Source: an uncultured Actinomycetota bacterium (lineage in GTDB: Bacteria; Actinomycetota; Actinomycetes; Streptosporangiales; Streptosporangiaceae). Taken from it: 64,000 nt of DNA. The notes under the pieces were generated by a model. It had not been told where the DNA came from. It was given only the letters and a program-made list of their open reading frames with translations, and ran no database searches. Each line of letters starts with the position of its first letter. Positions within the stretch are counted from its first letter, which is position 1. The position numbers and the translations under genes were made by a program. Below are positions 25,181-45,845 of the stretch, in pieces. The stretch lies in assembly GCA_963720575.1 (NCBI GenBank), contig CAVRGA010000002.1, positions 5,149,209 through 5,213,208 on the forward strand, read 5' to 3'.

Positions 25181-25211
25181 CAGGTTCGCTTCCCGCGGCC
25201 CGGCCGAGAAG

Positions 25212-28232: not shown

Positions 28233-28472
28233 CGAGATCACCGCCCCATGGATTCGTCGTCGCCTGGTTAGCTGACGCCTGACGCGCCGCCCGGGTTTAC
28301 CTCCCAGGTGCCTCTGCGGCCGATTAGCACGGCACTGCGGGGCGGTCACCGCTTATATCACGGTAAAGTCGCACCCTTTGGGGGGCCGCTCCGGTTATGC
28401 GCCGGGCTACGATCGGAGCATGGGCGAGCAGTTGCCGTCTACGGCGCACGCATCCGGAGAGCGTCCGGGGCC

Positions 28473-28957: not shown

Positions 28958-30283
28958 TCAGCTTCCTCCGGCGCACATGAGCGTCGATCCTCCGATGTAG
29001 GCCTCCAGGCCGTCCAGGACGGACGCCCGCGTCCCGAAGTTGACGTTGGTGTCGGAGCCCGGCTCCCACGTGAACCCGAAATGCGGCAGGGCGGCGATCG
29101 CATCGGCGTTGTTCTCGATGAAAACCCTCAGGTCGCCGTCATTGAAGTCGTGCAGCGAACAGTAGGCGCCGCGCTCGAAGTTCCCCTTGAAGATCAGGAA
29201 CTGGCCGAAGCCGTTGGTATTGGGTCCGCCTATGGTGCAGCCATCCGGCCAGGTGGCCGATTCGCACGGCTCGCTCAGAATGGCCGGCACGCCGGAGACC
29301 GTCGGCGGGCTGGTCAGGCTTGAGTTTGTGGTGACGGTGGTCGCCAGTTCGTCGGCCAGATTGCCGAAGAGGCTGCTGTAGGCGCCGCAGGTCGTCGTCA
29401 CGGGGCAGTACGCCTTGGCCGCTACCGACAGGTCAGCGTAGGCGTTGACCATCTCTCCTTGAGTGGACAGCCATTTTTGGGTGCCAGTTGCCGCGGTGCA
29501 GCCCGAGCTTGGGTCGGTTTCCCCGGCGATAAAGAACTCCGAGCCGGATGCGCCCGGGGCGGGCGTGCCGGCCACGTGGTTAGTCATCTCCGACATGACG
29601 CTGTCGGCAACCTGGAGGGCACCGCCCTTGCCGTCAGCCTTGCCGCCCATGTACTCGGCGTTACCGGTGATCTCGTACAGCCAGGCCGAGTCCCGTACGT
29701 ACAGGGAGTTAGCGAAACCGTCTTCGAGTTCGGGCTTCGACGCATCGGCGTTCTGCTGGACGATGAGGTCGCAGTCCTCCATGTACCCCTGGTCGGTGAT
29801 GTTGTTCCAGAGCTGCTCGGCCGCGTACAGGTACTTGCTGAGCTTGGTGTCCTCGTAAGCGTTGATCAGCGCCTGCTCCCACCAGCCCATGTCGTCGTAC
29901 CAGTGATTGTCGAACGGCGAGACTCCCTCGTCATCCGCGCCAGCGGGGCATCCTCCGTCGCAGAAGGTGCTGAACGTGTTCGAGAAGTCGGCCTTGATCG
30001 AGGTGATATTGCCCTGCCGGGTCGTGTTCGTGGTGCCGGTGTTGTTCTCGGCGTAATCAAAGAGCGCCATGAACGTGTCCGCCGTCCACCACCAGCAGTT
30101 TCCCGACTCCTGGCTGGCCGGACAGGTCGTGCTGAACAGGCCCGTGCTGTTCTGGTAAACGCCGAGAATGTCACTGGCGGCCGTGTCAGCCGCCGCGCTG
30201 GGCGTGACGGCTGCGCCGGCACCGGGTATTCCGAAAGCGAGAATGCCTAATGTGGTTACTAGCACACAAAGGATTCGTTTCAT
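28958..30283 (-). CDS. Secreted glycoside-hydrolase-like protein (possibly GH76 family).
   Basis: Start MKRILCVLVTTLGILAFGIPGAGAA (signal peptide). YDDMGWW and WLYEITGN segments resemble the GH76 six-hairpin family. The family call is tentative. Confidence 0.45.
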   Translation of the reverse strand: MKRILCVLVTTLGILAFGIPGAGAAVTPSAAADTAASDILGVYQNSTGLFSTTCPASQESGNCWWWTADTFMALFDYAENNTGTTNTTRQGNITSIKADFSNTFSTFCDGGCPAGADDEGVSPFDNHWYDDMGWWEQALINAYEDTKLSKYLYAAEQLWNNITDQGYMEDCDLIVQQNADASKPELEDGFANSLYVRDSAWLYEITGNAEYMGGKADGKGGALQVADSVMSEMTNHVAGTPAPGASGSEFFIAGETDPSSGCTAATGTQKWLSTQGEMVNAYADLSVAAKAYCPVTTTCGAYSSLFGNLADELATTVTTNSSLTSPPTVSGVPAILSEPCESATWPDGCTIGGPNTNGFGQFLIFKGNFERGAYCSLHDFNDGDLRVFIENNADAIAALPHFGFTWEPGSDTNVNFGTRASVLDGLEAYIGGSTLMCAGGS

Positions 30284-30415
30284 CCTTTGACAGTAAGTTA
30301 AGCTGGATACGCTGACAATACCCGAAACGACAGCCACTTCAGATAATCAACGCGCCGGCACGCGCGCGGCGAGCCTAGCCTAGATGGCCCGTCGGCGCGC
30401 GCACGGCTGCGGTTA

Positions 30416-31325: not shown

Positions 31326-32672
31326 ATGATGTGGTGGCGGGTACCCGCGCCGAACGAGGCGCTGCTGATCTCCGGTTCGAAGGGGCGCAAGGACGGCTCC
31401 GAGCAGTTCCGGATCGTCACCGGTCACGGTGCCATGGTCCTGCCGATCAAGCAGAAGGCCCGGCTGCTCTCGCTCGCCCTGCGCGAGGCCGAGATCGTCG
31501 AGGACTGCATCACCCAGCAGGGAATCAAGCTCAACGTCCGGGCCGTCGCCGCTTTCAAGGTCGGCGACGACCCGGTCTCGATCGCCAACGCGGCCCGCAG
31601 GTTCCTGGCTGAGCAGGACAAGATGGAAGTGCTGGTCGGCCGGGTGTTCGCCGGGCACCTGCGGTCGATCATCGGCGGCCTGACGGTCGAGCAGATAATC
31701 CGGGAGCGCGACCGGGTCGCCCAGGAGGTCAAGGACGGCAGCCACGGCGAGATGGAGAAGCTCGGCATCGTCGTCGATGCCCTGGAGATCCAGGAAATCG
31801 AGGACGCCTCCGGTTACATCAACAATCTCGCGGCCCCGCATGCGGCGGCAGTCGCCAGCGCAGCCCGCATCGCCCGGGCCCGGGCTGATCAGGAAGCCGC
31901 TCAGCGCGAGCTTGAAGTAGCCGCGATGAAGGCTCAGTACGAGCGCGATACCGAGATCAAGAAAGCCGGCTTCCTGGCGGAGACCGAGCAGGCCAGGTCA
32001 AGGGCCGCCCAGTCCGGCCCGCTTGCCTCGGCTCAGGCGTCGCAGGAAGTCATCGAGCAGCAGACAGCGCTCGCCAGCAGGCAGGCCGACCTGGCCGCGC
32101 AGCGCCTGGAGGCAGAGGTGCGGCGGCCCGCCGACGCCGAGGCCTACCGCAAGCGCGCCATCGCCGAGGCCGACCGCGACCAGGCCAAGCTCGCCGCGGA
32201 AGCCGACGCCTATCGCAAGAGAATGCTCGCCGAGGCAGACCGCGACCAGGCCAAGCTCGCTGCCGAGGCCGAGGCTTACCGCAACACCACGATTGCCGCG
32301 GCACAGGCCACGGCCGCCAAGCTGCAGGCCGACGCGGCAGCCTACGCCGAGAGGGCGACGGCTCAAGGTGAAGCCGACGCGAACGAAGCCAGGGCCACCT
32401 CGCTCCGCGCGGGTAACCAGGAGCTCATCGCAGCCAGCCGTCTCATCGAGCAGCTGCCCGTGCTGGTTGAGGCAGCAGCGCGCGGCATCGCCGATTCCAA
32501 CCTGACTGTCCTGAATGGCGCGCAGGGCGTCAATGAGCTGCTTGCCGGCCTGGTAGGCCAGGGCCTGTCGATTTTCGAGCTGCTCAAGAAGTCGACTGCC
32601 GCAGCAGTCGGAGAACTCCCGGCCTCCGATGTGAACGGAAAGGCCGCGCCCAAGGCCACCGCTCCGCACTGA
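31326..32672 (+). CDS. Flotillin-like SPFH/band-7 protein.
   Basis: Start MMWWRVPAPNEALLISGS. SPFH core. Long Ala/Glu-rich coiled coil with repeated AEADRDQAKLAAEA (flotillin EA repeats). Confidence 0.8.
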   Translation: MMWWRVPAPNEALLISGSKGRKDGSEQFRIVTGHGAMVLPIKQKARLLSLALREAEIVEDCITQQGIKLNVRAVAAFKVGDDPVSIANAARRFLAEQDKMEVLVGRVFAGHLRSIIGGLTVEQIIRERDRVAQEVKDGSHGEMEKLGIVVDALEIQEIEDASGYINNLAAPHAAAVASAARIARARADQEAAQRELEVAAMKAQYERDTEIKKAGFLAETEQARSRAAQSGPLASAQASQEVIEQQTALASRQADLAAQRLEAEVRRPADAEAYRKRAIAEADRDQAKLAAEADAYRKRMLAEADRDQAKLAAEAEAYRNTTIAAAQATAAKLQADAAAYAERATAQGEADANEARATSLRAGNQELIAASRLIEQLPVLVEAAARGIADSNLTVLNGAQGVNELLAGLVGQGLSIFELLKKSTAAAVGELPASDVNGKAAPKATAPH

Positions 32673-32997
32673 CAAAGTGCCCAGAGCCCGGATGCTGATG
32701 ACGACCCGCCGAGATCCGCTCAGCACCACAACGTTAAAGCTGAAACCAATTTTCTTAATGAAAAATTTGCGGTGCCTGGACGTGCACTCCTGAGGCCAGT
32801 GCAGCCGGCCTGCCAGCGGAAGCCACCCGCCTGGTGCGCCTTAGTAACATCTTCCGTAATCTACTGGTTCATAGATTTTCCCGATTACAAGGTATATCGT
32901 GGGCGTAGTCGGGCGTGCTCAAGATAGCTAGAACGTCGGCTATCGCCTTGGGCATACGGATAGTTAAAGATCGGTACAGTCCTGTATGCTCCCCCTC

Positions 32998-33378
32998 ATG
33001 GGCGAAATAGAAGAAGGGCCGCCACCTGTCCTTGTGACCATCGGCGATATTTCCTGTACATCCCAGTCAGTTATCACGCCTTCAGGGAGCCACCCCATCA
33101 AGGATGTGGTGTGGTCCGTCAACGACATGACTTCCACCGTCCGGGTCATTCCGGTCTGGGCGATTATTCTGACAATCATTACTTTTTGGTTCTTTCTTAT
33201 TGGGCTACTCTTCTTGCTCGTCCGGGAGACCAGGACGACCGGGAGCGTTCAGGTGGCCGTCCAGGGCGCGAATTTCTTCCATTCGACGCAAGTTTCCGTG
33301 AGCAGCCCAGCCCAGGTGGCCGATGTCAACTCGCGGGTCGGATTCGCGCGCTCGCTGACCGCTGGCGCGACCGCCTAG
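32998..33378 (+). CDS. Small membrane protein (one TM), unknown function. First gene of the ATPase/toxin operon. GC content is atypical.
   Basis: MGEIEEGPP…VIPVWAIILTIITFWFFLIGLLFLLVRETR. Codon usage is AT-richer (att/ttt/ctt) than its neighbours. Preceded by an AT-rich leader. Confidence 0.45.
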   Translation: MGEIEEGPPPVLVTIGDISCTSQSVITPSGSHPIKDVVWSVNDMTSTVRVIPVWAIILTIITFWFFLIGLLFLLVRETRTTGSVQVAVQGANFFHSTQVSVSSPAQVADVNSRVGFARSLTAGATA

Positions 33379-33402
33379 CTGGCCGGATCTCAAGGGGGGC
33401 AC

Positions 33403-35271
33403 ATGGTGCAGGATCTTCCGGCAGAGCGGCCGGAGCCAGCAGTCGCCGCGCAGGAGATCAGCCTCGCTGAGAAGCTGTTCGTGCCGGCGGAGAGGTGGGG
33501 GTGGGAGTACGCCGAGCCCGCGAGGCTCGAAGTTCCGGCCCGGCTCCAGCAGAAGCCCGAGTGGCGCGAGCCCTCGATCACGGCTCGGCCCCCGGTGCCG
33601 CTGACTCGTTCCGCGCAGCGACCGCCGCCCCGGCTGGGCTGGCGCCTGGCGGTCTTCATTCCCGTGACGCTCATCTGCCTGCTGATCGCCGTGCATGCTG
33701 CCGGGATACTCGTCATTCCGCTAGTACTCGGCCTCATCCTGTTCGTGCCGATGGCGTCAGCGGGCACGCGGCAGCCCGCGGTTGGCCCGCATGACCTCCG
33801 CCAGGCGGAGTGGAGCAAGTATCAGCAAGAGCTCAGGCTGTGGGAAACGGCGGTCGCCCAGCACGAGCATGCCGAGGTGGCTCGCCTGGCGGGCATGCCC
33901 GTCTGGTATCCGCTCAGCACCGATGCCGCCGCCCGCCGGGTCGACATCGTGGGCGGCACCGGCGACGGGTGGGCCGCCATGCTGGCGACATTCGGCATGT
34001 CAGCGCTCGCGAACGACGACATGATGCTGCTGCTCGACTTCTCTCAGCATGACGTCGGAGGCGGCTTAGCCGAACTGGCTTCCGTGCCCGATCTGGCGGT
34101 GGAGTGGCTGCATCTCCCGGCCGATCTGGCCGCGATTGACCTGCTTGACGAGCTCGACGCCGAAGCGTGCGCCGAGACGATCGCCGAGGCGGTCGCGACG
34201 CTGCGGCCTGTGCCGGGAAACGCTGATGTGCGCGCCATGCACGCGGCGTTCCTCCGCACCGTCACCAGCAGGCTCGACGGGAGTCTCACCTTCGCCCGGA
34301 TCGCCGCCGGCCTGCGGGTCCTGCAGCGACGCTACGACGACACTGGCGAAACGACCCCGCTGGCCGCGCAGGAGCTACGGGCACTGCATGCCCAGGTCGA
34401 TACCGTCGGCGGCTCGGAACGAGCTGATGGCGAATTGTCATTCCTGTGCGAGATGCTCGAGCTACTGGCTACCGGAAGCGTTACCGGAGTCAATGACCTG
34501 CGATCCTGGCATCAGGCACAGCTGACTGTTATCGCCACGGACGATCTCAATGAGCGCAGGAAGGACCTGATCGACAGGGTGCTGCTTCAGGTGGTGCTCC
34601 AGCATCTGCGCAGGCGCCGTTTCGGCAATGGCCATGGGCTGCTCGCTATCGCCGGGGCCGACCACCTTGGCGCGGTTACGCTGGAAGCGCTGACCCGGCA
34701 CGCCAGGCTTAACGGCGCCCGCCTGATCCTCTTCTTCGAGCATCTGCGCGCCGATGCCGTTCAGATGCTCGGCGGGTCCGACAGCGCTGCCATATTGATG
34801 CGGATGGGAAACGCGCAAGAGGCAGCGGCGGCCGCCGAATTCATCGGACGGGCCCATCGTTTCGTTCAGAGCCAGCTGACCAGGCAGGTCGGCCAGACGA
34901 AGACCGTGTCAAGCGGAGTTACAGGCGGCGGACAGTCAGGGCTCAGCACGACGTCCGGTCAGAGTTCGGGACACAGCCACAGCGCTGGCGCGATATCGCG
35001 GCATTCTTCCTGGCATTCGTCAGTCACGGACTCTCGCATGCTCACCTGGAACGAAACAAAGAACTGGTCGACGGCCTCGTCGGTTACCGAAGGCGAGACG
35101 TCCCAGCGCGTCTATGAATTCGCCGTCGAGCCCACCGAAATCCAGTCGCTGCCGCTGACGGCGTTCATCCTCGTGGAGTCCGGTCACGGTGGCCGCCGCG
35201 TCACGCTCGGGGACTGTAATCCCGGGATCGTGACGCTCGACCGGGTGTCGGCCGCGTCCCGTAGCGCCTGA
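33403..35271 (+). CDS. Membrane-anchored protein (2 TM) with a degenerate P-loop NTPase-like domain, paralogous to the downstream ATPase.
   Basis: 622 aa. TM hairpin LAVFIPVTLICLLIAVHAAGILVIPLVLGLILFV. VDIVGGTGDGWAAML…DDMMLLLDFSQ lines up with AFVCGATGAGKSQTV…PWLVIEPAKS of the next gene, with the Walker A Lys replaced by Trp. Ser/Gly-rich C-terminus. Confidence 0.55.
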   Translation: MVQDLPAERPEPAVAAQEISLAEKLFVPAERWGWEYAEPARLEVPARLQQKPEWREPSITARPPVPLTRSAQRPPPRLGWRLAVFIPVTLICLLIAVHAAGILVIPLVLGLILFVPMASAGTRQPAVGPHDLRQAEWSKYQQELRLWETAVAQHEHAEVARLAGMPVWYPLSTDAAARRVDIVGGTGDGWAAMLATFGMSALANDDMMLLLDFSQHDVGGGLAELASVPDLAVEWLHLPADLAAIDLLDELDAEACAETIAEAVATLRPVPGNADVRAMHAAFLRTVTSRLDGSLTFARIAAGLRVLQRRYDDTGETTPLAAQELRALHAQVDTVGGSERADGELSFLCEMLELLATGSVTGVNDLRSWHQAQLTVIATDDLNERRKDLIDRVLLQVVLQHLRRRRFGNGHGLLAIAGADHLGAVTLEALTRHARLNGARLILFFEHLRADAVQMLGGSDSAAILMRMGNAQEAAAAAEFIGRAHRFVQSQLTRQVGQTKTVSSGVTGGGQSGLSTTSGQSSGHSHSAGAISRHSSWHSSVTDSRMLTWNETKNWSTASSVTEGETSQRVYEFAVEPTEIQSLPLTAFILVESGHGGRRVTLGDCNPGIVTLDRVSAASRSA

Positions 35272-35286: not shown

Positions 35287-38205
35287 ATGCGGCAAGAGGC
35301 CGGCGATCACGCGGCGGCGCCCTGGACGAGCTACCGCTTCGTCCAGCTGCTGGCCGTACCCCGGTCAAAGCGGCCCGCGTCAGCAGCGCGGGACGCCGAG
35401 CCGGACCCGGGTTACCGTCGCCTCACTCAGCTGTTCGCGGCCCTGACATCGGCACATGCGACCTTGTCCGGTCATCGGGCTGACGGCGCCGGGGCGTTCG
35501 CCATGGCGTGGTTCCGGTCACCGGCTCAGGCGGATCACCGCGTCGTGCTCGGCGGGCAGCCCGTCCTCCCCTGGTCAGCGGCAGTATCAGCGAAGCCGGC
35601 GAAGACGCTGCGGATTCCCTACCCGCCGGGCGCCCTTGTCCGGGAGCTTCCTGCCGGCCAGCTGGGCGGCTGGCTGACTGAGTTCCCGTCATGGGTGGCG
35701 TGCACGGCCGTGCCGGACGCGCTGTGGACTAAAGATGACGGCAAGGCTCGGGACGGCTCCTTTGACGACTACGCGGCTTGCCTGTCCGAGCCGTTCGCCT
35801 GGGTCGTGCTGGCCGAGCCGCTACAGGCCGAGGAGCTCGACGAGGAGCTCACCAGCCTCGAAACGCAGATTCCCAGGATGCGGCAGCGGCAGAATTCCGA
35901 GGCCGACCGGGTGCGCCTGGAGCGTTCCGAGGCGCGATACCGGGAACTAGCCAGATCCAGGATCTACGGCACCTGGAGCGTGCGCGTGCTGGTGGGCGGC
36001 ATGAACGTCGCCCAGGCGCGCGCTACGGCGGCGTTGCTCTGCGGCGCGAGCGAGCTGGGCGGCCTGCCCTACGCGCTGACGCCTTCGGGAGGCTGCGGCT
36101 CGCAGGAGAGCCTGCTCCAGGCTTTCGCGCACCGACGGGCCGGAGATGCGCCGTTCGCGGCGAGCACCGAGATGGTCGCCGCCCTGGCACGGCCGCCCGA
36201 GAAAGAAATGCCTGGCATCAGGGTGATCACCCCGCCGACCTTCGACATCACCCCTGAGCACTCGACCGGGACCGGGTTCAGCCTCGGAACGGTGCTGGAC
36301 GAGACGCTGACGTCCGCAGGTGAGTTCCTGCTCTCCCCGGCGACGCTCAACCGGCATGCCTTCGTCTGCGGGGCTACCGGCGCAGGAAAGTCACAGACCG
36401 TGCGGTCCCTGCTTGACGCTCTGGCCACCAGCCAGCCTCCGGTGCCCTGGCTGGTGATCGAGCCCGCCAAGTCTGAATACGCCCGCATGGCAGGCCGGCT
36501 CGCGGGCCGCGGCAAGGTGACGATCATCAGGCCGGGCGACTCGACGTCGGTGCCAGGCTGTCTTAACCCGCTCGAGCCTGAGCCCGGATTCCCGATCCAA
36601 ACCCACATCGACCTGATCAGGGCGCTTTTCCTGGCTGCCTTCGAGGCGTACGAGCCGTTCCCTCAGGTACTCAGCCACGCCCTGACCCGCTGCTATCAGA
36701 ACATGGGCTGGGATCTCGCGCTGAGCGAGTCGCGCCTGCCCGGCATCACGCCCGCTTGGCCGACCCTGACCGACTTGCAGCGCGAGGCGCTCTCGGTGGT
36801 CGAGCACATCGGCTACGGCCGGGAGGTGACCGCCGACGTCAGGGGCTTCATCGACGTCCGGATCAGCAGCCTGCGACTTGGCACCCCAGGCCGGTTCTTC
36901 GAAGGCGGCCATCCGCTCGACCTGGCCAGCCTGCTGAGCAGCAACACCGTCCTGGAGCTCGAGGACATCGGCAACGACCAGGACAAGGCATTCCTCATCG
37001 GCGCCGTCCTCATTCGCGTGGCCGAGCACCTGCGCCAGCGCTGGGGCCGGTATGAGGGCGAGCTGACCCTGCGGCACGTCACCGTCGTCGAGGAAGCGCA
37101 CCGGCTGCTCAAGGTCGCTGAGCTTGGCAGCCCCGCCGCCCACGCCGTCGAGCTGTTCGCCGCGCTGATCGCCGAGATTCGCGCCTACGGCGAAGGCATC
37201 GTCGTGGCCGAGCAGATCCCCGGCAAGATAGTGACCGACGTCATCAAGAACTCAGCGCTCAAGATCGTCCATCGGCTGCCCGCTCAGGATGACCGGCTCG
37301 CCGTCGGGGCGACCATGAACCTCGACGAACGGCAGTCACAGTACGTCGTCACGCTGCCGCCAGGCCAGGCGGCGGTCTTCGCCGACGGCATGGACCATCC
37401 GGTACTCGTCGCGATGCCGTACCGGGAAGAGCAGGAAACCGCGACCGGGGCGAGCCGCGAAGTTGGCCTGGCGGGCAGGCGCGGCATGGCCTGCGGCACG
37501 CAGTGCCGGGTCCGAGCCTGCACGCTGCGCGAGATCGCCCTCGGTGAACGGGCGGCCGCCGATCCGCACGTGATCTTGTGGCTTGAGCTCCTCATCGTCG
37601 CCCACCTGGTCGGCGAGCCAGAGCCCAGGCCGGACCGCACCTGGCTGGCCGGCCTGCGGAAAGCAGCCGACCGCAGAACGCTGGAGTGCGCCGTCGCAAA
37701 CAGGATCGATACGGCGATCACGAGCCGCTATGGCGAGCTGGTCAGCTTCTACCAGCCGGAATCGCTCGCGGCCCACGTCGCCGACTGCGCCATGCGCTGG
37801 CTGGATGGCGCGGCCGGCAGCTGCGAAGGCAATGAGATCGGCTGGCAGGCCGGCCGGTACCGGTGGATCGACGTCGTCAGGTCACTGCACGACGGCACCC
37901 CGAAGGACAGGCCCCATCCGGCCACCGCGAGCTGGCGTGCCCGCGGCCTCGAGCTGCCCGGCAGCACCCAGGCCAAGCAGCTTGAGGCCTGGCGGCGCCA
38001 CCCGGATACGTGGCTGCCATCGCGGACGGTCATCGAGGGCAGGGATAGCCCGCCCGCGTACGAGCGCGCGGCCAGCCAGCTCAGCGACGCCATCGAGCCG
38101 ATCGACCGCCTCGCGCGGGCGGTCACGTTCCTGGCTACCGGCACGGACTGGCCAGAGACACGCCTGTACCCGGAGGCGTGGCGCGCTCGCCGGGAGGCGA
38201 CATGA
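35287..38205 (+). CDS. HerA/FtsK-superfamily (DUF87-like) ATPase with N- and C-terminal extension domains.
   Basis: 972 aa. Walker A AFVCGATGAGKSQTV. Walker B / HerA signature TVVEEAHRLL. Second HerA signature IVVAEQIPGKIVTDVIKNSALKIVHRLPAQDDRLAV. Cys cluster CGTQCRVRAC in the C-terminal domain. Confidence 0.75.
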   Translation: MRQEAGDHAAAPWTSYRFVQLLAVPRSKRPASAARDAEPDPGYRRLTQLFAALTSAHATLSGHRADGAGAFAMAWFRSPAQADHRVVLGGQPVLPWSAAVSAKPAKTLRIPYPPGALVRELPAGQLGGWLTEFPSWVACTAVPDALWTKDDGKARDGSFDDYAACLSEPFAWVVLAEPLQAEELDEELTSLETQIPRMRQRQNSEADRVRLERSEARYRELARSRIYGTWSVRVLVGGMNVAQARATAALLCGASELGGLPYALTPSGGCGSQESLLQAFAHRRAGDAPFAASTEMVAALARPPEKEMPGIRVITPPTFDITPEHSTGTGFSLGTVLDETLTSAGEFLLSPATLNRHAFVCGATGAGKSQTVRSLLDALATSQPPVPWLVIEPAKSEYARMAGRLAGRGKVTIIRPGDSTSVPGCLNPLEPEPGFPIQTHIDLIRALFLAAFEAYEPFPQVLSHALTRCYQNMGWDLALSESRLPGITPAWPTLTDLQREALSVVEHIGYGREVTADVRGFIDVRISSLRLGTPGRFFEGGHPLDLASLLSSNTVLELEDIGNDQDKAFLIGAVLIRVAEHLRQRWGRYEGELTLRHVTVVEEAHRLLKVAELGSPAAHAVELFAALIAEIRAYGEGIVVAEQIPGKIVTDVIKNSALKIVHRLPAQDDRLAVGATMNLDERQSQYVVTLPPGQAAVFADGMDHPVLVAMPYREEQETATGASREVGLAGRRGMACGTQCRVRACTLREIALGERAAADPHVILWLELLIVAHLVGEPEPRPDRTWLAGLRKAADRRTLECAVANRIDTAITSRYGELVSFYQPESLAAHVADCAMRWLDGAAGSCEGNEIGWQAGRYRWIDVVRSLHDGTPKDRPHPATASWRARGLELPGSTQAKQLEAWRRHPDTWLPSRTVIEGRDSPPAYERAASQLSDAIEPIDRLARAVTFLATGTDWPETRLYPEAWRARREAT

Positions 38206-38840
38206 CTGAACTCAGGGAGCCCGAGCCGCCCGTCATCGACCAGGCGGAGCTGAATGACCGCGCCGGCACCCAGGATGCGCCAGCAGCCCAGCGAGACGCC
38301 GAGCTGATCCCAGCACCTCGGCAGCAGGAAGTGCGGGACACCGGCACGACCGACGACCAGCAGGCTGACAACCCTCCGCCCAGCGTCGACGGACCGCACG
38401 AGTCGCCCGAGAGCTGGGCCGGCGACATCAACCCGGCAGACGACCGGGCCAACTGCGGCGACTGCGCGCGTGCCAGTCAGCAAACCTGGGAAGGCGATCC
38501 GCGTGCGGCGGCGATGTCTGCGGACACCGACGGTGAGCCTCCAGAACGGATGGCCGAATGGGCGGGCGAGACGCCCAGGGAGGTCACCATGGCTGAGGTC
38601 GGCGAGCGACTGCAGGACCTTGGGCCGGGAAGTTCCGCGATCGTCGGCTTTGATCGAGAGGACGACGTCGGTCACTGGTTCAATGCCGTCAACGATGATG
38701 GAGAGATCAAGGCAGTGGACGGCCAGAGCGGGGCCGTTGAGCCGTGGCCGCCTACCGTGGACGGACTCGGTTTCAGCGAAGCTGAGATGAGTTACTCGGA
38801 CGCCATTTTCTTTGATCCATCAGGGAGGACCGTTACGTGA
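38202..38840 (+). CDS. Papain-fold toxin-like protein (Tox-PL-type Cys-His-Asp/Gln catalytic triad) with an acidic, disordered N-terminal half.
   Basis: ATGA overlap with the ATPase stop. NCGDCARASQQTW (Cys nucleophile motif), …SSAIVGFDREDDVGHWFNAVNDDGEIKAVDGQSG (His and Asp/Gln). The arrangement matches papain-like polymorphic-toxin domains. Confidence 0.55.
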   Translation: MTELREPEPPVIDQAELNDRAGTQDAPAAQRDAELIPAPRQQEVRDTGTTDDQQADNPPPSVDGPHESPESWAGDINPADDRANCGDCARASQQTWEGDPRAAAMSADTDGEPPERMAEWAGETPREVTMAEVGERLQDLGPGSSAIVGFDREDDVGHWFNAVNDDGEIKAVDGQSGAVEPWPPTVDGLGFSEAEMSYSDAIFFDPSGRTVT

Positions 38841-39115
38841 TTACACACGACGATGCTGAGCGCATCGCGACCGATATCCTCGGGGCACCCGGCCCGGTCG
38901 AGGATCCCGACTGGAGGCTCGTCGAGTTCGACTCAGGCTGGCTCATCAAGAAAAAATCCCAGGGTCGGCGCGGCGGTGTGACCAGGGTTATCGAACGCTC
39001 ATCCGGTGAGGTACTTGAGTTTCCATCGAGCATCTCATCTCGTCGCATCCTGGATGATTTCGCGGCGGTAGCAGATCGCGGCCGCGTCAATAAGGACGCG
39101 CGTGGCGGAGGCTGA
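38837..39115 (+). CDS. YrhB-like immunity protein.
   Basis: 92 aa. ATGA overlap with the toxin stop. MITHDDAERIATDILG…WRLVEFDSGWLIKKKS…VIERSSGEVLEFPSSISSRRIL matches the YrhB-family pattern (MI..EA..IA…GW…G…FPSS). Confidence 0.55.
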   Translation: MITHDDAERIATDILGAPGPVEDPDWRLVEFDSGWLIKKKSQGRRGGVTRVIERSSGEVLEFPSSISSRRILDDFAAVADRGRVNKDARGGG

Positions 39116-39118
39116 CCA

Positions 39119-39470
39119 ATGACGCTGAAGACCGCCCGGCTCACGATCGACCGCAGCTTGCTCCCGCAAAAATGGGACGGCCTTGGCATCAAGTTCGAGC
39201 GTCGTTCCGTCGTGGCCATCAAGGCCTCCGCCCCGCCCCGTGACCTGGTGCTTGTCAAGCCGGCGGGATCGCTTCTCGCCGCCGGCGATGCGGTGGGCCC
39301 CGAGCCGCGCTGGAACAACATTCTCTGCGGGCCTCAAGGCCATGGACGGCACGGACGCGCAAGGGCAGGGCCAGCTGCTCATCACGGGCCAGCGGATCAT
39401 CGGCATGATCGAGAACGGACAGGTGGCAGGCGGGTCGCCGCTCTCCGATTCCACCGGCAACATATAAAAA
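39119..39470 (+). CDS. Hypothetical small protein; the reading frame appears broken near 39290-39330.
   Basis: Frame A: MTLKTARLTIDRSLLPQKWDGLGIKFERRSVVAIKA…PEPRWNNILCG. Frame B continues plausibly to a stop at 39467: …MDGTDAQGQGQLLITGQRIIGMIENGQVAGGSPLSDSTGNI. Confidence 0.25.
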
Positions 39471-39769
39471 CTGGGCTACTGGCCCGGCGGCGGGAAGAAG
39501 AAGCGCCGCAGGCCGCCGGCCGGCGAGGCGCTGCGCGAGGTCCGGGCAGACGGCTCGACCTTTCTCAAAACGCCCATAACCCCTCAGACGCGCCGCCAGG
39601 GCTGCACGCCCTGATGAGACGGGACTGGCCGGCGAGCACCGTTCTGACCCCGGCCCGCCTGACAGCGGCGTGCGACGATGGCGCCTGATGAGCGGGCCGC
39701 AGGCCAGCGGTTGCGGGCCGGGATGCTCCGCAGGGCGGAGCAAGCTCAGGCCGCCCGGCTAATCGGAGA

Positions 39770-40555
39770 TCATCGGCTGCGGATCTGATTACGCACGGGT
39801 GGCTTGCCGAAGATGGCTTCCTTGGAGGCCTGCGCGAGGGTGGCCTGGGTACTGGCGGGCAGCCCGATCCTGTTCCAGTGGAAGATCACGTGCAAAGCGA
39901 TAACTGCCCGAAGTCCGCAGGTGAGTTCCCCTGTTTCCCGCAGCCTCCGCAGGTCGGTGCCTGCGTTTTCGAATGCTGCGTGCCATTCGCCGGCAGCCCT
40001 GGGGATCCCGGTGAGGAGCAGGCGGGCGCTGGCTGTGAAGTCGTCCCATGCGCGGGCTTCCGAGACTAGGGGGCGGTTGATGTGCTGAGCGCGATAATCG
40101 AGGACTCTTGCCCAGACGTCGCCTTGTTCGTTGAGGTCGAGCGCGGCTGCGCGCATGAGTCCCGTGCAAAGCACGAGCGAGCGTTCCCGCCGGTCAGCCG
40201 GGTCCTGGCGGAGGTAGGTGAGGAGGTGGCGGCTGTCGTGGTGGAACAGCGCATGCGCGCTGGCCATGGCTTCGGTGCCGCCGAACGCGTGGGTCTCAGG
40301 TTCGTAGATATCTGCGGTCCAGCTGACTCCGCAGCCGATCATCCTGGAGGCGAGGCCGGGGTTATCGGGTTCCTTCGCGGGCTGGTATCGGATACGCCAG
40401 GGGCCTTTGCGGATGAACCACCAGGAGGTGATTAGACCGTCGGTTTCAGCGGCGGGAAGCACCTGCGAAAGATGGGCGACAGCGTGATGTTCTTGCCGCT
40501 GGCGTGTGTCGCCGAGCCAGGTGATGTTGATCTGCTGCCAGGGAGTCTCGTCCAC
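39770..40555 (-). CDS. Stand-alone SpaB_C-type (lantibiotic dehydratase C-terminal / thiopeptide-type) elimination-domain protein.
   Basis: WWFIRKGPWRIRYQ and IYEPETHAFGG…LFHHDSR motifs. Proposed GTG start at 40555, 14 nt after the LanC stop. The annotated ORF start (40732) would overlap LanC. Confidence 0.7.
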   Translation of the reverse strand: MDETPWQQINITWLGDTRQRQEHHAVAHLSQVLPAAETDGLITSWWFIRKGPWRIRYQPAKEPDNPGLASRMIGCGVSWTADIYEPETHAFGGTEAMASAHALFHHDSRHLLTYLRQDPADRRERSLVLCTGLMRAAALDLNEQGDVWARVLDYRAQHINRPLVSEARAWDDFTASARLLLTGIPRAAGEWHAAFENAGTDLRRLRETGELTCGLRAVIALHVIFHWNRIGLPASTQATLAQASKEAIFGKPPVRNQIRSR

Positions 40556-40568
40556 GGCTGGCCTTTCG

Positions 40569-41639
40569 TCAGGTGAGGAGCAGGCACGCGTCCCACGAGG
40601 TGGCGGTGGTTCCGGCAGTGGCGAGGTCGGCGCCTGCCGTGCCGTCGAGGAGGCCGGTGATTTCGCCGGGGGCAGCGGGAGCCTGCCGGTGCAGGTCGTG
40701 GAGCGGGGTGAGGGATACCGGGGTGGAGGCATCGCCGGCGATACGGCGGGCGGTGGCGAGGAGCCCAGCGGTGCCGTGGCAGAGGCTGCGGCCGGTCAGG
40801 AGCCCGGTCTGGGATGGGTCGGTGACGCAACTGGCGAATGCGGTCTCGGCGAGGTGCTGGCGGGCGGGGTCGCGCAGGGCCTGCGCGGCGAGTTGCTGGG
40901 CGCGGGCGATGCCGGGGGTGCCGTAGCACCAGGACGGCCTGGGCGGGGTCCGCTGGGCTGACGCGCCGTGGTGCAGCTCGGCGCGGGTAATGGCCTGGGG
41001 CCACCAGGTGATTCCGCCGGTGCCTTGCTGCCAGGTATCCAGCCATTGGCAGATGCGGCCGATCGCGGTGGTGTGGCCGTCGACCGTAATGCGGTCGGTG
41101 CGGGTGAGGGCGAGCAGCGCGAGCGGGCCGGCGATGCCGTGGGCCATGCCGAAGTTAGCGTGGCCTCCGGCGAGCTGCGCGCGTCCTGGTCCGTTCCTGC
41201 ACCACCAGCCCGGCAGTGTGCCGATCGGCTCGGTAAGCCGGACCAGGTACTCCAGGATGTCGCGGAGCAGGTCGTGGTCGCCGAGCCGCCGCGCGGTGAC
41301 GCCGAGTCCGGTCAGGCCCCGGATGAGGTCATATTCAGCGTAGTGCGGCTGCTCGTGCCGGTCGATGCGGCGACGGGCGGCATCGAGCCGCTGGCTGGTG
41401 ACGATGGCTGTGCCCTCGGCGGTGAGCGCCTGTGCGTGCGCGAGTCCGGGGCGGTCGGTAGTGGCGAGTACGAAAGCGATTGCGGGGGCGCCGTAGAAGA
41501 GGCTGGCGCCAGCGCCGATGCTGACACCGCCGGCGGTGGCGCGGCGCAGTGCCTCCTGCGCCGCCGGCCAGTTGCTGGTCTCCAGGTGCAGCAGGGCTAC
41601 CCCGGCCATTCCGTCGGCGAGGGATTGCTCGTTGCTCAT
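40569..41639 (-). CDS. lanC: LanC-like lanthipeptide cyclase.
   Basis: 356 aa. Zinc-ligand motifs SWCYGTPGI and CHGTAGL. GxxG repeats (HANFGMAHGIAG). Confidence 0.85.
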   Translation of the reverse strand: MSNEQSLADGMAGVALLHLETSNWPAAQEALRRATAGGVSIGAGASLFYGAPAIAFVLATTDRPGLAHAQALTAEGTAIVTSQRLDAARRRIDRHEQPHYAEYDLIRGLTGLGVTARRLGDHDLLRDILEYLVRLTEPIGTLPGWWCRNGPGRAQLAGGHANFGMAHGIAGPLALLALTRTDRITVDGHTTAIGRICQWLDTWQQGTGGITWWPQAITRAELHHGASAQRTPPRPSWCYGTPGIARAQQLAAQALRDPARQHLAETAFASCVTDPSQTGLLTGRSLCHGTAGLLATARRIAGDASTPVSLTPLHDLHRQAPAAPGEITGLLDGTAGADLATAGTTATSWDACLLLT

Positions 41640-44429
41640 GGTGCTTGCCGGGCGCGGGCGGTGCGGGCTATGGCGCGGGCCAGGCGCAGGCAGTGCCGTT
41701 CGGAGGCGGGATCGACGCTGATCATGCGGGCGTGGTGCAGGTGGAGCAGGTCAGCGAGAACCTGGTCGGGGTCGAGGCCGTCGCGGCTGGCCAGGGTGCG
41801 GTAGGCGGTCAGTGCTGCGGTGAGCTGTTCGTCGCGGAACGGTATCCGGGCGAGAGTGAGCTGGGCGGGGTTCAGGCGGGGTCCGGTGAGGTGCGTGGTG
41901 CCTGCGAGCCAGCTGAGGCCGTGGCCGGTGAAGCTGTCAGCGATGGTGATCATGCTGGCGGCGGTGGCTGCCTGCCGGTCGCCGGCCAGGCGGTGCAGGA
42001 CGGCGCGGGAATCGGCCGCGAAGACCGCCTCGGCGGCGGCGAGTGCCGCTCCGGTGCCGTGCCGGGTTTCGGGCCGGTAGGGGTGGAGGCTGTAGTCGTG
42101 CGCGGCGGCGTGATCGTGCAGTTCCCGGCCAGGCAGCGAGGTGCCGGGCGGTGTCGGCGAACTGGCCGGGGCGCGGGAGCGGGATGCGCAACCGCAGGTG
42201 GGGCGCGGGGTCGGGATACCGCACGAACCACCAGCCTGAGGGCAGGTGGTCGCCCGGGCGGGTGGCGAGGTCGGCCAGGATGTCGTCGGTCCGGCCGTGC
42301 AGGTGCGCCTCGAGCCAGCGTCCCTGTCCCGGGTGGTACTCGACAGTGCTGGCCGGGCGGGCGGGCCGTGCTGGCCGGGCCGGCTGGGTGCGGGTCAGTG
42401 TGAGCACGATCTCTGCGGGGCGTCCGCCGATCCAGCCGGCCGGACCCGGAGCCTCGGTGATCATGATGCGGGCCTGCCGGCTGAGCTGGCTGCGCAGGAT
42501 GGCGAGGTGAGCGGGCTCGTCGAGGTCCAGCTGCAGTCGCACGTCGTCGTCGCCTTCCAGGACCTCGCGGGGAAGCCGGAGCTGTTCGCGGTGGTGCTGC
42601 CAGGCGTCGCGCCATTGCGGCCAGGTCGCGGTGCGGGCGGGAAGCGCTTCCCGGTCGATGATCCACCGGGCGGGGTGCACGATGCTGCGGCCGTGGCGGA
42701 CTCGGGGCAGGAACGGCAGGCTGCTGGCATGTCCCCAGTCGAACCGGCTGCACGGCGCTGTCCACGCGGTCCAGATCTCGGTCAGGAACCGCATCAGGGG
42801 CTGCTGCAGGGCCGGCAGCAGCACGCTGTTGAGCAGCAGCGGCTCCACGGGCCGCCCGGTGACCTTCGATACCAGCCACAGCCGCTGGCCGTCGCCGGTC
42901 ACCGCCAGGTCCTGCACCGTCCGCTGCGGTACCGGATGGAACTCGCCCAGGGGGAGGACGGGCAGCACCTCGGGCACCCGGGCCACTGCCGTCAGGCGGG
43001 CGTCCAGCGGAGGGCCGGAGAGCTGGACGATATCCGCGCCGGGCAGCGCCGTCGGCAGGTACCGGAAGGCACGCCGGTATGAGGCGAGCTCGGCGGGGGT
43101 CAGCAGGTGCAGGAACCGGCCGGCGGCGACGCCGGCGTGACGTGACCCGCTGAGCACCGTCAGCGTGAACTCTCCCCGGTCCAGGTCTGCCAGGGTGCCG
43201 GCGGCCAGGGTGAACCGCAGGTCGGCGTGCGGGACCGGCGGCCGGCGGTCATCGCCGCGTAAGGCACCGATCAGCGCGTCGTCGAGTATCACCTCGGTGC
43301 CGCCGTTCAGCGCGGACTGCTGGGCGACCTGGCCGAGCAGCCGGTCGCGGGCGGTGAACACCGCTGGGGAGCGCCGGGCGGATCCCCGGTATCCGGCGGG
43401 GTATCCCAGGACGTTCAGCAGATCACGGACCGGCACGGCTGCTCCGGGCCCCCACCGCTCGATGAACGCATGGTGGTACTCGGCCCATCCGGGCATGCCA
43501 GGCGCCACCGCGGTCAGCGCCGACGCAGCCCGGCCCGCCTCACGGAGTACCGCGGGCGGCAGTGTAACGGCGGCGTCGGCACGCAGATCGACTGCGACCC
43601 GGCTGCCGGGGCGCGGCAGGGTGTAGCAGCGAGCCGCGTACCCGGCCGGATCGGTTACGGTCATCGCCGGGCGCAGCTCTGACAGCAGCACCCCCGTCTG
43701 CACCAACCCGGCCAGCAGCTGCTCGGCCGCGGCGGCGTCCGCTGGTCCGGCGATCGTCGCGGCGAGCCCGGCGAACCCGGCCGGCGAGCGCGCTGCATCG
43801 ATGGCGGCCCGGACCGGGCCGGTCAGCCGGACCTCGGCATCCCACCTGCGCTCCCCGTCCGTGCGGGCACAGGGCACCACCCACCGGTCGCCGCGCTGAT
43901 ATCCGAGCGTATTCGTCACCACCGCGACGGTGCGCAAGACATCGAGGTCCGTCTCGGCCCGCGTGGCGTGCTCGGCGATGAACTGGCCGTCGGGACGGGT
44001 GACCAGCTGGTGCTCGTCACCGATACGGACTGCCGCGCGGTCACCGAAGCGGACCGGGGCGATGCCGGCGAAGCTGCCGAACGGCGTCGCGCGGGTGGTC
44101 CATCGCAGCAGGTATCGGATCGCTGACTCGGTCAGCCGGCGCAGCCGCTGCCGGGGCACCGGATCACCGGTCACCGCGCTGCTGATCTGTGCGGCCAGCT
44201 GGGGAGCTGCGGAACTGACGGCCGCCGCGAAGCCAGGCAGCCGCCAGGCGAGGGTCAGCCACTCCTGCCACTGCGCGGGAGCGCCCGAGGCCAGGTCAGG
44301 CCAGGCCGGCAGATCCAGGCCGGCCGGATACGAGGCGGCCCGGATGTGGGCCGTGCCTTCTGCGGGAATCATCGGACGCTCCGGGGAAGCTCGGCCCGGC
44401 GCGCGAGGTACCGGACCCGAGGAGGCCAA
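41636..44429 (-). CDS. lanB: LanB-type class I lanthipeptide dehydratase, full length (glutamylation plus elimination domains). Apparent frame break near 42130.
   Basis: ORF 41937-44429 gives the Lant_dehydr_N-like domain and ends …GWWFVRYPDPAPHLRLR…HLAAW, then Arg/Pro nonsense. A third frame from about 42130 reads …YRPETRHGTGAALAAAEAVFAADSRA…, which continues into ORF 41636-41953 (…VLADLLHLHHARMISVDPASERHCLRLARAIA). This parallels the SpaB_C protein at 39770. ATGA overlap with lanC. Confidence 0.8.
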
Positions 44430-44440
44430 CGGATCGGCCG

Positions 44441-44589
44441 CTATGCGTCGGAGCGGGTCGTGCAGGCCGTCCCGCTCGTGTTGCCTGAGCCGCAGTTGTC
44501 GTCAGTGGTGGTGCTGTGGCCGGTGGCGGCGGCCCGGAGTCAACCAGGCTGACGTCCAGGGTGAACTCCGGGGATCGGGTTTCGCTCAT
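44441..44589 (-). CDS. FxLD-family lanthipeptide precursor (LanA), apparently interrupted by a single-base indel.
   Basis: ATGA overlap with the upstream methyltransferase stop. Leader MSETRSPEFTLDVSLVDS(G) contains F-x-L-D. After a G/C run (about 44520-44545) a different frame reads …ATGHSTTTDDNCGSGNTSGTACTTRSDA-stop (TAG at 44441-44443): a Ser/Thr/Cys-rich core. The in-frame continuation lacks any Cys and runs into lanB. Confidence 0.5.
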
Positions 44590-45845
44590 GGCAATTGCCC
44601 TTCTGGTGCGGGGGTGAAGGTGAGGACAAGACGGCTGTGCCGCTTGTCCAGCACCGTCCCGGGCGGCAGGTCGCCGTCGGGAGTCTTCAGGGGCAGAACA
44701 TGCATCACCGGCGCGGGAGTGCCCGCGTCGACCCAGGCGCGCATCTGGCCGGCCAGTCGGGCGGCCGCCGCCGCGGCATCAGGTCCGTGCGCGCGGGCAC
44801 CGAGGTCGAACATGCGGTCGGTCCAGCGCAGCGCTGACCGGTAGCACAACGTGCCGCCATCAAAGGTGGCGGGCGAGCCGAAACGCCAGCCCGGGGCGAC
44901 GACCCCGGCATCGACGGCCTCCTGCTGGGCCGCCAGGACAGCGAACTGCCCGGTGTCAGCCCCGGGAGCGGCTGCCAGCCACATGTCGAGGTCGGCCAGG
45001 ACAGTCGTGGGCGGCAGGCTCACCCCGGCCCACGCCTGCTCGGAAGACCTGGACAGCAACTCGCCGAGCACCCCGGCATCCATCTGCTGGCCCTCGTCGA
45101 GGCGCAAGTGGACGCCCTCGGCGATGTCGACGTACTGCATCTCGTGAGCACTGGCGCCCCGCACCAGGACAAACCCGCACAGCCGCTGGCTGTGACTGAC
45201 CAGCCGGTCGCCCTCCCGGCTCAGCGCCCACGAACGCGTCATCCCGAACGTCCGCAGCGGCACGACCAGCGTCCCAGTCGCGGCAAGCTGCCCGATCCAG
45301 GCCGGAGGGATATCCCAGGCCCCGGCCGTCACGATAATCACGTCGAAAGAACCATCGCCGGCGATGGGCTGCTCTGCGTCCGTGCACACCACGGTCACGT
45401 CGTCATAGCCGGCTGCCGCCAGGCATGCCGTAGCGCGGCTGGTCACGTCAGGATCGATATCGACCGTCGTCACAGATCCGGACGGGCCGACCAGCTCGCG
45501 GAGCAGCGCCGCGTTATAGCCACCGGAGCCGATCTCCAGCACCTGGCGGCCGCGGAGGCCGCCGTCGCTGGCATCAGCGGCCTGGCCGAGCATCTCCGCG
45601 ATGAGCCACGACGCCGACACCGAGCTGACGGTCTCGTCACCGACTCGCTTGGTGATCACGGCGTGGTCAGTCCGGTACGCCTCTTCCAGCCCGGTACCTG
45701 GGGTAAACAGATGCCGCGGCACCGCCCGCAGCGCCGCCTGCACCTCGGGCCGCATGATCAGCCCCTTGTCCACATGATCAGCGACTAGCTGATCAACCAT
45801 CGCGGTGTGAAAGCCCTCGGCGCTCACCGTGCCGACCGTCATCAT
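44586..45845 (-). CDS. Protein-L-isoaspartate O-methyltransferase-like methyltransferase with C-terminal extension (FxLD-system / OlvSA-type).
   Basis: 419 aa. PIMT core VLEIGSGGYNAALL. About 200-aa C-terminal domain. Immediately upstream of, and coupled to, the precursor gene. Confidence 0.8.
   Translation of the reverse strand: MMTVGTVSAEGFHTAMVDQLVADHVDKGLIMRPEVQAALRAVPRHLFTPGTGLEEAYRTDHAVITKRVGDETVSSVSASWLIAEMLGQAADASDGGLRGRQVLEIGSGGYNAALLRELVGPSGSVTTVDIDPDVTSRATACLAAAGYDDVTVVCTDAEQPIAGDGSFDVIIVTAGAWDIPPAWIGQLAATGTLVVPLRTFGMTRSWALSREGDRLVSHSQRLCGFVLVRGASAHEMQYVDIAEGVHLRLDEGQQMDAGVLGELLSRSSEQAWAGVSLPPTTVLADLDMWLAAAPGADTGQFAVLAAQQEAVDAGVVAPGWRFGSPATFDGGTLCYRSALRWTDRMFDLGARAHGPDAAAAAARLAGQMRAWVDAGTPAPVMHVLPLKTPDGDLPPGTVLDKRHSRLVLTFTPAPEGQLP

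Follow-up and report, generated by a model that had tools for sequence, protein, structure and literature searches.

The 64,000-nucleotide window analysed here (contig CAVRGA010000002.1 of assembly GCA_963720575.1, positions 5,149,209 to 5,213,208) comes from an uncultured bacterium of the Streptosporangiaceae (Actinomycetota) and contains a closely packed series of plus-strand genes that encode, in order, a 622-residue protein (p622), a 972-aa ATPase, a 212-aa putative toxin of the Tox-PL1 family and a 92-aa putative immunity protein (Table 1). The stop codon of the ATPase gene overlaps the start of the toxin gene as ATGA, as an initial annotation of the stretch had reported; the overlap between the toxin and immunity genes had been given as ATGA too, and in fact reads GTGA. 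The immunity gene is assigned this GTG start because it yields the MIT N-terminus common to the protein's homologues and to Escherichia coli YrhB, and because a Shine-Dalgarno-like GGGAGG lies 8 nt before it. Both small open reading frames (ORFs) are real genes rather than chance ORFs, given 118 toxin homologues, 55 cluster representatives of the immunity family and 72 metagenome loci recovered using the toxin alignment. Their GC content at third codon positions (GC3; 0.74 for the toxin gene and 0.66 for the immunity gene) is lower than that of the ATPase gene (0.86), consistent with a cassette of separate origin.

Table 1. Positions of the four-gene operon, its motifs and junctions, and the neighbouring lanthipeptide genes in the window.
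Feature	Position	Strand	Remark
p622, 622-aa ORF	33403-35271	+	membrane partner (predicted)
ATPase, 972-aa ORF	35287-38205	+	HerA/FtsK-superfamily P-loop ATPase
Walker A GATGAGKSQT, ATPase residues 362-371	36370-36399	+	invariant in 14 homologues
Walker B VVEEAHR, ATPase residues 600-606	37084-37104	+	invariant in 14 homologues
GGGAGG, Shine-Dalgarno-like	38192-38197	+	4 nt before toxin ATG; read from sequence
ATGA overlap, ATPase stop/toxin start	38202-38205	+	read from sequence
Toxin (putative), 212-aa ORF	38202-38840	+	Tox-PL1, ATG start
Toxin residues 1-60, acidic Pro-rich disordered leader	38202-38381	+	pLDDT 51-76; candidate recognition/targeting segment
Toxin residues 61-212	38382-38840	+	predicted papain-like domain and family-specific N-terminal extension
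Toxin N84-C85	38451-38456	+	C85 (38454-38456) catalytic candidate
Toxin H158, inside GHWFN	38673-38675	+	catalytic candidate
Toxin D173-G174-Q175	38718-38726	+	D173 (38718-38720) catalytic candidate; Q175 at 38724-38726
GGGAGG, Shine-Dalgarno-like	38823-38828	+	8 nt before immunity GTG; read from sequence
GTGA overlap, toxin stop/immunity start	38837-38840	+	read from sequence
Immunity protein (putative), 92-aa ORF	38837-39115	+	Imm35/YrhB-like, GTG start
Lant_dehydr_C pieces, three ORFs	tail of 41937-44429; 41636-41953; 39770-40732	-	
LanC-like cyclase	40569-41639	-	lanthipeptide cluster
LanB dehydratase N-terminal part	41937-44429	-	lanthipeptide cluster
PCMT-type O-methyltransferase	44586-45845	-	lanthipeptide cluster

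The toxin matches the Pfam family PF15644 (Gln_amidase/Tox-PL1) with a score of 59.7 bits against a cut-off of 24.1 (E 7e-16), and the match spans residues 84-177 (nt 38451-38732) and profile positions 2-113 of 114. All 118 homologues, which were found by a word-indexed search and are 117-370 aa in length, contain this domain. The NC-H-DxQ signature that defines Tox-PL1 (Zhang et al. 2012) is complete in the toxin. When 36 of the homologues are aligned, H158, D173, G174 and Q175 do not vary, and N84, C85, G86 and C88 are conserved in at least 90% of the sequences. The Cys (NC..C), His (GHWFN) and Asp/Gln (DGQ) elements listed in the initial annotation are all present, and their signature residues are invariant or nearly so. 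A family-specific stretch with the consensus VDGPHExPExWxxDINP (residues 62-78) lies ahead of the candidate catalytic Cys, and is itself preceded in the alignment by a hypervariable region rich in Pro, Asp, Glu and Ala.

An AlphaFold2 model built on the homologue alignment has a mean predicted local distance difference test score (pLDDT) of 84.9, with the core above 90 and residues 61-212 modelled confidently (84-98). Foldseek searches with the model return many papain-like neighbours in the PDB at modest E-values (3e-3 to 7e-2), including OspI (4ip3), AvrPphB (1ukf), a CdiA-CT cysteine peptidase toxin, MERS PLpro and the papain-like toxin of a toxin/immunity pair (9l5u). OspI, a Shigella effector with glutamine deamidase activity, falls within the PF15644 family. 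No solved relative is detectable by sequence search, and neither NCBIfam nor PADLOC contains a family for the protein. As modelled, the fold is papain-like, and together with the Pfam score and the intact signature this agrees with the papain-fold toxin that had been proposed. The N-terminal 95 residues had also been described as acidic and of low complexity. This applies to residues 1-60, which carry a net charge of -9, contain nine Pro residues and are predicted to be disordered; residues 61-83 (SVDGPHESPESWAGDINPADDRAN) are conserved in the family and ordered in the model (pLDDT 84-97). Since confident modelling begins at residue 61, the acidic low-complexity part is approximately 60 residues long rather than 95.

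The 92-aa protein has no match in Pfam, NCBIfam or PADLOC, and the Imm35 (PF15567) hidden Markov model (HMM) does not match it even at E <= 10 (gathering score 27.5 bits), while the positive control, E. coli YrhB, is an Imm35 member with 81.8 bits. The Pfam search proposed in the initial annotation thus places the toxin above the Tox-PL1 cut-off and finds no Imm35/YrhB match for its partner. Only two of 40 relatives of the 92-aa protein are touched by the Imm35 HMM (best E 0.0041), and Imm-NTF2-2 gives equally weak matches in five of the 40. Nevertheless, hhalign aligns the family profile with YrhB over its full length (probability 89.8%, E 1.8e-6, 73 columns). The score is 38.2; shuffling YrhB 200 times gives 10.4 +/- 2.4 with a maximum of 20.7, and reversing it gives 13.1. 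Residue W35 is invariant in the family, the SG at residues 56-57 aligns with an SG of YrhB, and the predicted fold is alpha1-beta4-alpha. Imm35 has been described as an alpha+beta protein with a conserved W and [ST] that has Tox-PL1 as its specific partner and might inhibit peptidases (Zhang et al. 2012). The label of a divergent Imm35/YrhB-like protein is chosen because the full-length alignment to YrhB is accompanied by a missed HMM threshold; judged by these profile comparisons, the protein is best described as belonging to a divergent actinobacterial sister family of Imm35/YrhB, not to the Pfam family itself.

An exhaustive phmmer search recovered 55 cluster representatives of this family, of which a word-indexed search found almost none, and the ORFs immediately 3' of the toxin homologues belong to it. 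The immunity homologue starts at the toxin stop in 45 of the 55 metagenome loci with enough downstream sequence, and in five further metagenome loci it is contained within a fused ORF. The YrhB resemblance noted initially is therefore upheld by the alignment and by the position beside the toxin, and fails at the threshold of the Imm35 HMM. Two relatives of the immunity protein carry the Imm35-like domain in other settings. One (P0155) is a fusion to Gln_amidase, a combination of domains already noted for Imm35 (Zhang et al. 2012), and may be a self-inhibited toxin. The other (P0137, 1603 aa) has an N-terminal Imm35-like domain followed by Sel1 repeats, three AAA domains and a trypsin-like peptidase, and may represent a sensor-like use of the domain.

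The ATPase contains the Pfam domains DUF87 and HerA_C and, in precomputed annotation, a C-terminal DUF8350 (PF27615); it has a single P-loop domain and a Cys-rich motif at residues 736-745. Profile searches match solved HerA proteins (8yho, 9.5e-13; 4d2i, 6e-9), and hhalign relates the family to the E. coli FtsK motor (80%). E-values of the PADLOC HerA models against the ATPase range from 1e-13 to 1e-2, and two of the models align in two stretches; T7SS_EccC_a gives a match to the P-loop only (E 0.0038). The Walker motifs are complete, and the protein falls within the FtsK-HerA superfamily of translocases. The family has at least 2113 clusters (E <= 1e-10), an upper bound for the family proper as other HerA-like proteins may be included. 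Among the matches listed, those with organism names are all from actinomycetes (Streptomyces, Amycolatopsis, Saccharothrix, Lentzea, Nocardia, Kribbella, Micromonospora and others), and the listed relatives are annotated only as 'ATP-binding protein' or 'HerA-like'. Virus-classified low-GC contigs in IMG/VR (L103-L107) encode HerA-like ATPases of ~920-1150 aa with 30-34% identity and no p622 homologue; they belong to a wider uncharacterised ATPase family that extends beyond the Actinomycetota. These distant proteins are all that IMG/VR yields, and a phage origin of the operon was rejected.

Protein p622 has two predicted transmembrane (TM) helices at residues 78-119 (nt 33634-33759), and the basic residues on both flanks of the pair suggest that its large domain is presumably cytoplasmic. 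A Ser/Thr/Gly-rich linker (residues 501-566) leads to a small conserved C-terminal domain. Searches of Pfam, NCBIfam, PDB sequences and PADLOC gave no match. The motifs GGTGDGW and AGADHLG...ARRxGVRLxLLFEH had raised the prospect of a degenerate FtsK/VirD4-like P-loop protein, which is unsupported: the profile search of PDB sequences returned nothing, hhalign gives 0.2% against the ATPase family and 1.2% against the E. coli FtsK motor, and in the latter case the sole aligned stretch is the suspected one. A low-GC stretch (32500-33400; 0.57 compared with ~0.68 around it) lies just 5' of p622 and could be a promoter region or a strain-specific insertion. It contains a 130-aa single-TM ORF (p130; 32986-33378) that is annotated as a gene in the matching public contig; p130 was considered as a fourth component and set aside, as no homologue or analogous ORF is present 5' of p622 elsewhere.

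The arrangement of p622, ATPase and downstream cargo is widely conserved. A genome scan with one genome per species gave 18 loci with the ATPase, and in 16 of these a p622 homologue lies 5' of it on the same strand; at L019 the homologue is on the opposite strand, and at L016 the contig ends before the p622 position. The same layout is present in four further genomes (L098-L101) and on the Streptomyces clavuligerus megaplasmid pSCL4 (L108). No gene family is conserved 5' of p622 across the loci. Four-nucleotide overlaps are by themselves frequent in bacterial operons. The ATPase gene is nearly always followed by a cargo gene, usually with such an overlap: in ~20 loci the cargo start overlaps the ATPase stop codon by 4 nt (the same offset, -3). 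The recurrence of this overlap at the same junction with different cargoes is beyond chance.

The cargoes are of many kinds. A Tox-PL1 gene lies directly 3' of the ATPase in the window, at L002 and in nine metagenome loci. In its place are a GH-E HNH nuclease followed by a SuFu-family immunity protein (L007), RHS-repeat proteins of 1529-1594 aa (L014, L017 and L023), a calpain-like peptidase (Peptidase_C2; L018), a PI3/4-kinase-like protein (L019), a RelA/SpoT-like protein that scores 26.7 bits, 0.3 below its cut-off of 27.0 (L011), and a protein without a known toxin family followed by Imm49 (L010); the pSCL4 cargo (L108) is an ADP-ribosyltransferase by annotation. Many cargoes are without any Pfam domain, and most are followed by small overlapping partner genes (e.g. 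L008, L098, L108 and L011). Four Streptomyces loci have ATPases that share 89-92% identity; their cargoes are 57-79% identical over the first 60 residues, whereas the last 150 show no relationship. A conserved N-terminus with a replaced C-terminal toxin is the defining pattern of polymorphic toxins (Zhang et al. 2012), which these Streptomyces cargoes follow.

Two cargo loci have features of their own. The pSCL4 module is complete (NZ_CP016560.1, 391634-397698; BB341_RS29380-29395), with a 134-aa overlapping partner gene product and an ADP-ribosyltransferase leader of ~110 acidic disordered residues (MSTDRETISPPPES...). At L100 (11435-12433, Nocardia asiatica) the gene overlapping the end of the 543-aa cargo encodes an IU_nuc_hydro-like inosine-uridine nucleoside hydrolase, which may be an enzymatic immunity protein against a nucleotide-directed toxin.

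Cargo N-termini are acidic, poor in hydrophobic residues and often Pro-rich over 50-420 residues. Within the first 60 residues, the mean net charge of 31 cargoes is -8.9 compared with -1.1 for 125 control proteins drawn from the same loci (p = 2e-10), and the hydrophobic fraction is 0.13 compared with 0.32 (p = 3e-16). Typical starts are MS[AIVT]D... or M[ST]E[LM]..., in which the S/T/N at position 2 is partly imposed by the ATGA overlap. The acidic N-terminus of the Tox-PL1 protein belongs to this class of leader, which co-occurs with the p622-HerA module. No cargo, the RHS proteins included, has a signal peptide, WXG, LXG, PAAR or other known trafficking domain, and Pfam finds nothing ahead of the toxin domain, with TPS, SpvB and MuF among the routes considered. 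The N-terminus of the toxin is thus unlike the usual large trafficking domains, as had been noted, and without a recognised secretion signal the cargoes need another way out of the cell. The suggestion that the leader is a recognition or export segment for the ATPase fits well with acidic leaders that are common to the cargoes while their C-termini vary. The leaders of several cargoes also contain long internal tandem duplications (L012, 7294-8922, with a repeated unit of ~50 aa; L009, 8853-9290; L020, 8649-9524; L022, 8652-9422), which suggests rapid length evolution of the leader.

The most economical reading of this arrangement is a polymorphic-toxin system in which p622 and the ATPase form the trafficking module. 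The pair in the window is, on balance, probably a polymorphic-toxin-type toxin-immunity cassette that is carried as exchangeable cargo by a p622-HerA operon that drives export. Family assignments, conserved gene order and overlap, leader composition and cargo C-terminal replacement were computed directly, and we infer that the toxin is toxic, that its partner neutralises it, that the ATPase recognises the leader and that export takes place. The toxin, as a Cys-His-Asp papain-fold enzyme, would deamidate glutamine or cleave a peptide bond in an essential protein, and the Imm35/YrhB-like protein, co-made by translational coupling, would most likely bind and block it. Membrane-anchored p622 would dock a ring of the ATPase at the cytoplasmic face of the membrane, where the ATPase would recognise the acidic, Pro-rich disordered leader common to the cargoes; ATP hydrolysis would then expel the toxin from the producer or push it into an adjacent hypha, and recipient cells without the immunity gene would be inhibited. 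Delivery between hyphae is conceivable because every host genus named in the records examined is a filamentous actinomycete. A bolder proposal, which we regard as possible and hold only tentatively, is that p622 and its single-domain HerA-type DUF8350 ATPase may constitute a new delivery pathway of filamentous Actinomycetota, exporting leader-bearing polymorphic toxins or passing them from hypha to hypha; its cargoes might range from 150-aa enzymes to 1600-aa RHS cages, each with its own immunity gene, and the Tox-PL1/Imm35-like pair might be one of its cassettes. No published description of a p622-HerA-cargo-immunity operon was found in full-text literature, reviews and surveys; most subscription-journal papers lie outside this coverage and an earlier description is possible.

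Several observations weigh against export by the operon. Anti-phage systems that act inside the cell are likewise built around HerA-family ATPases, and these provide the best PDB and PADLOC matches of the ATPase; NACHT, Mrr or STALD conflict genes surround some of the loci; no similarity between p622 and a known secretion component could be detected, and a channel formed from p622, with two TM helices per subunit, is speculative. The likeness among cargo leaders is mainly compositional, the sample of cargoes behind the charge and hydrophobicity comparison is not phylogenetically independent, and ~70% of the Tox-PL1/immunity pairs (23 of the 32 metagenome loci in which 1 kb or more of sequence precedes the pair) are not beside the ATPase, which adjoins the toxin gene in the other nine. 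The main rival is accordingly an intracellular HerA-based conflict or abortive infection system, in which p622 and the ATPase would sense phage or stress and free or activate the toxin inside the producer, with the partner acting as an antitoxin and with no export. The anti-phage relatives of the ATPase, the NACHT, Mrr_cat and STALD genes beside some loci, the lack of a recognisable channel component in the loci and the Imm35-like domain of P0137, a Sel1-AAA-trypsin giant typical of nucleoside triphosphate-dependent conflict systems, all accord with it. We nevertheless consider it unlikely: RHS cage toxins of ~1500 aa and classic exported toxin/immunity pairs (GH-E/SuFu, Imm49 and Tox-PL1/Imm35) are among the cargoes, the replacement of C-termini on a conserved N-terminus is a signature of interbacterial polymorphic toxins, and neither of the known HerA defence partners, SIR2 and DUF4297, is present.

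The pairs without an ATPase (23 metagenome loci and the genome loci L003 and L005) indicate that the cassette can exist without the ATPase in cis, and they raise the alternative that an autonomous mobile cassette has landed 3' of an unrelated ATPase operon, either as an orphan or as the substrate of an export pathway encoded elsewhere, such as ESX/T7SS. Type VII secretion (T7SS) is among the trafficking modes of Tox-PL1 (Zhang et al. 2012), and the lower GC3 of the pair suggests a separate origin. This account is rather less credible still than intracellular action, since the same 4-nt overlap is used by many unrelated cargoes, Tox-PL1 genes lie 3' of the ATPase independently in at least 11 loci and the toxin has a disordered N-terminus with no WXG or LXG domain; chance juxtaposition is unlikely. 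No conserved alternative partner was found 5' of the orphan Tox-PL1 pairs, and these copies retain a similar leader (MSAD..., MSEL..., poly-Pro/acidic), as would be expected if the ATPase acts in trans. On one metagenome contig (L064) a p622 homologue (7149-8315, minus strand), oriented opposite to a Tox-PL1/immunity pair, lies ~3 kb 3' of it, and some pairs that appear to be orphans may thus still be near a module. A role for the Tox-PL1 protein as a processing peptidase, serving for example the neighbouring lanthipeptide cluster or other cargo, with the small protein as its regulator, is highly improbable. Some Tox-PL1 domains do act as releasing peptidases (Zhang et al. 2012) and a class I lanthipeptide cluster lies 650 bp downstream on the opposite strand, but the genes around the pair are unrelated from locus to locus across more than 70 loci and none is conserved, and a Tox-PL1 domain that is the only globular domain of its protein and is paired with an Imm35-like gene has the configuration of a toxin.

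With described Tox-PL1 (PF15644) proteins the toxin shares an above-threshold HMM match, the NC-H-DxQ residues, a predicted papain-like fold, a C-terminal position of the domain and an immunity gene directly 3'. Those toxins are fused to folded trafficking modules such as WXG/T7SS, SpvB/TcdB-TcaC, MuF or RHS (Zhang et al. 2012), whereas the proteins of this subfamily are small (120-370 aa) and have only a disordered acidic leader and a family-specific conserved extension before the catalytic Cys; the subfamily consists of new members of a known family. The 92-aa protein resembles Imm35/YrhB (PF15567) in its length of ~90 aa, alpha+beta composition, MIT...A N-terminus, GW and SG motifs and Tox-PL1 partner, and differs in falling below the Pfam gathering score; this sub-threshold branch likewise represents new members, Tox-PL1 and Imm35 being known themselves. 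Cpe1-Cpi1 of E. coli (PMC12136450) is a further pair, in which a papain-fold Cys-His-Asp interbacterial protease toxin is neutralised by a small cognate immunity protein, and it is a weak structural neighbour of the toxin (9l5u). Cpe1 belongs to a C39-like papain clade, is delivered by type VI secretion or contact-dependent inhibition in Gram-negative bacteria and has GyrB/ParE as its substrate, and no sequence relationship with the toxin was detected.

The operon also has parallels with two classes of ATPase-dependent system. Like the ESX and T7SSb systems with EccC/EssC, it ties an ATPase of the FtsK-HerA superfamily to a membrane protein in Gram-positive hosts, and like the LXG and WXG toxins of T7SS its cargoes have a conserved N-terminal targeting part (here a candidate one), a variable C-terminal toxin and an immunity gene 3'. 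However, the ATPase has a single P-loop of the HerA clade with DUF8350 rather than three FtsK-like domains, a disordered acidic leader stands in place of a helical bundle, and no WXG100, LXG, EccB/D/E or MycP genes are present in the loci. SIR2-HerA and DUF4297-HerA, which provide the best sequence matches to solved structures, similarly have a HerA-family ATPase beside a toxic effector. The ATPase here differs from these defence proteins in having ~340 extra N-terminal and ~250 extra C-terminal residues, its partner is a protein with two TM helices, and the effectors are polymorphic, leader-bearing and accompanied by immunity genes, with RHS proteins among them; PADLOC gives no match for p622, the toxin or the immunity protein, and a SIR2 or DUF4297 pairing was not found.

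Taken alone, the pair is a divergent actinobacterial branch of the Tox-PL1 and Imm35 families, useful but ordinary. Its context, which matters more, is a four-gene architecture that is widespread among antibiotic-producing actinomycetes (Streptomyces, Amycolatopsis, Saccharothrix, Nocardia, Micromonospora, Kribbella and others) that links a HerA-type ATPase to a large exchangeable toxin repertoire without a known secretion signal. If the ATPase module is an exporter, it would represent a new secretion route in Gram-positive bacteria, would account for the exit of leaderless RHS and enzyme toxins from these cells and would show that a disordered acidic leader can direct targeting. Such a module would moreover serve as a genomic hook for new toxin/immunity families, obtained by taking the gene after the ATPase, as many cargoes have no Pfam domain. 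The pSCL4 copy offers a ready experimental system in S. clavuligerus, a model streptomycete.

The remaining parts of the window contain several features that adjoin the operon or lie near it. A 189-aa ORF (39119-39688) starts 4 nt after the immunity stop and has no Pfam match, an Arg-rich tail and atypical codon-position GC; its sole match is the same public contig, and the ORF is probably either no gene at all or what is left of a decayed cassette. The class I lanthipeptide cluster occupies 39770-45845 on the minus strand, and its Lant_dehydr_C region is divided among three ORFs, which may reflect a LanB that is split or carries a frameshift, or else an elimination-domain protein in its own right. 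On the other side, a SPFH/Band-7 protein (31326-32672) adjoins the operon, and three long ORFs without a Pfam match lie farther to the left (24903-26756, plus strand; 26790-28349 and 28958-30337, both minus strand).

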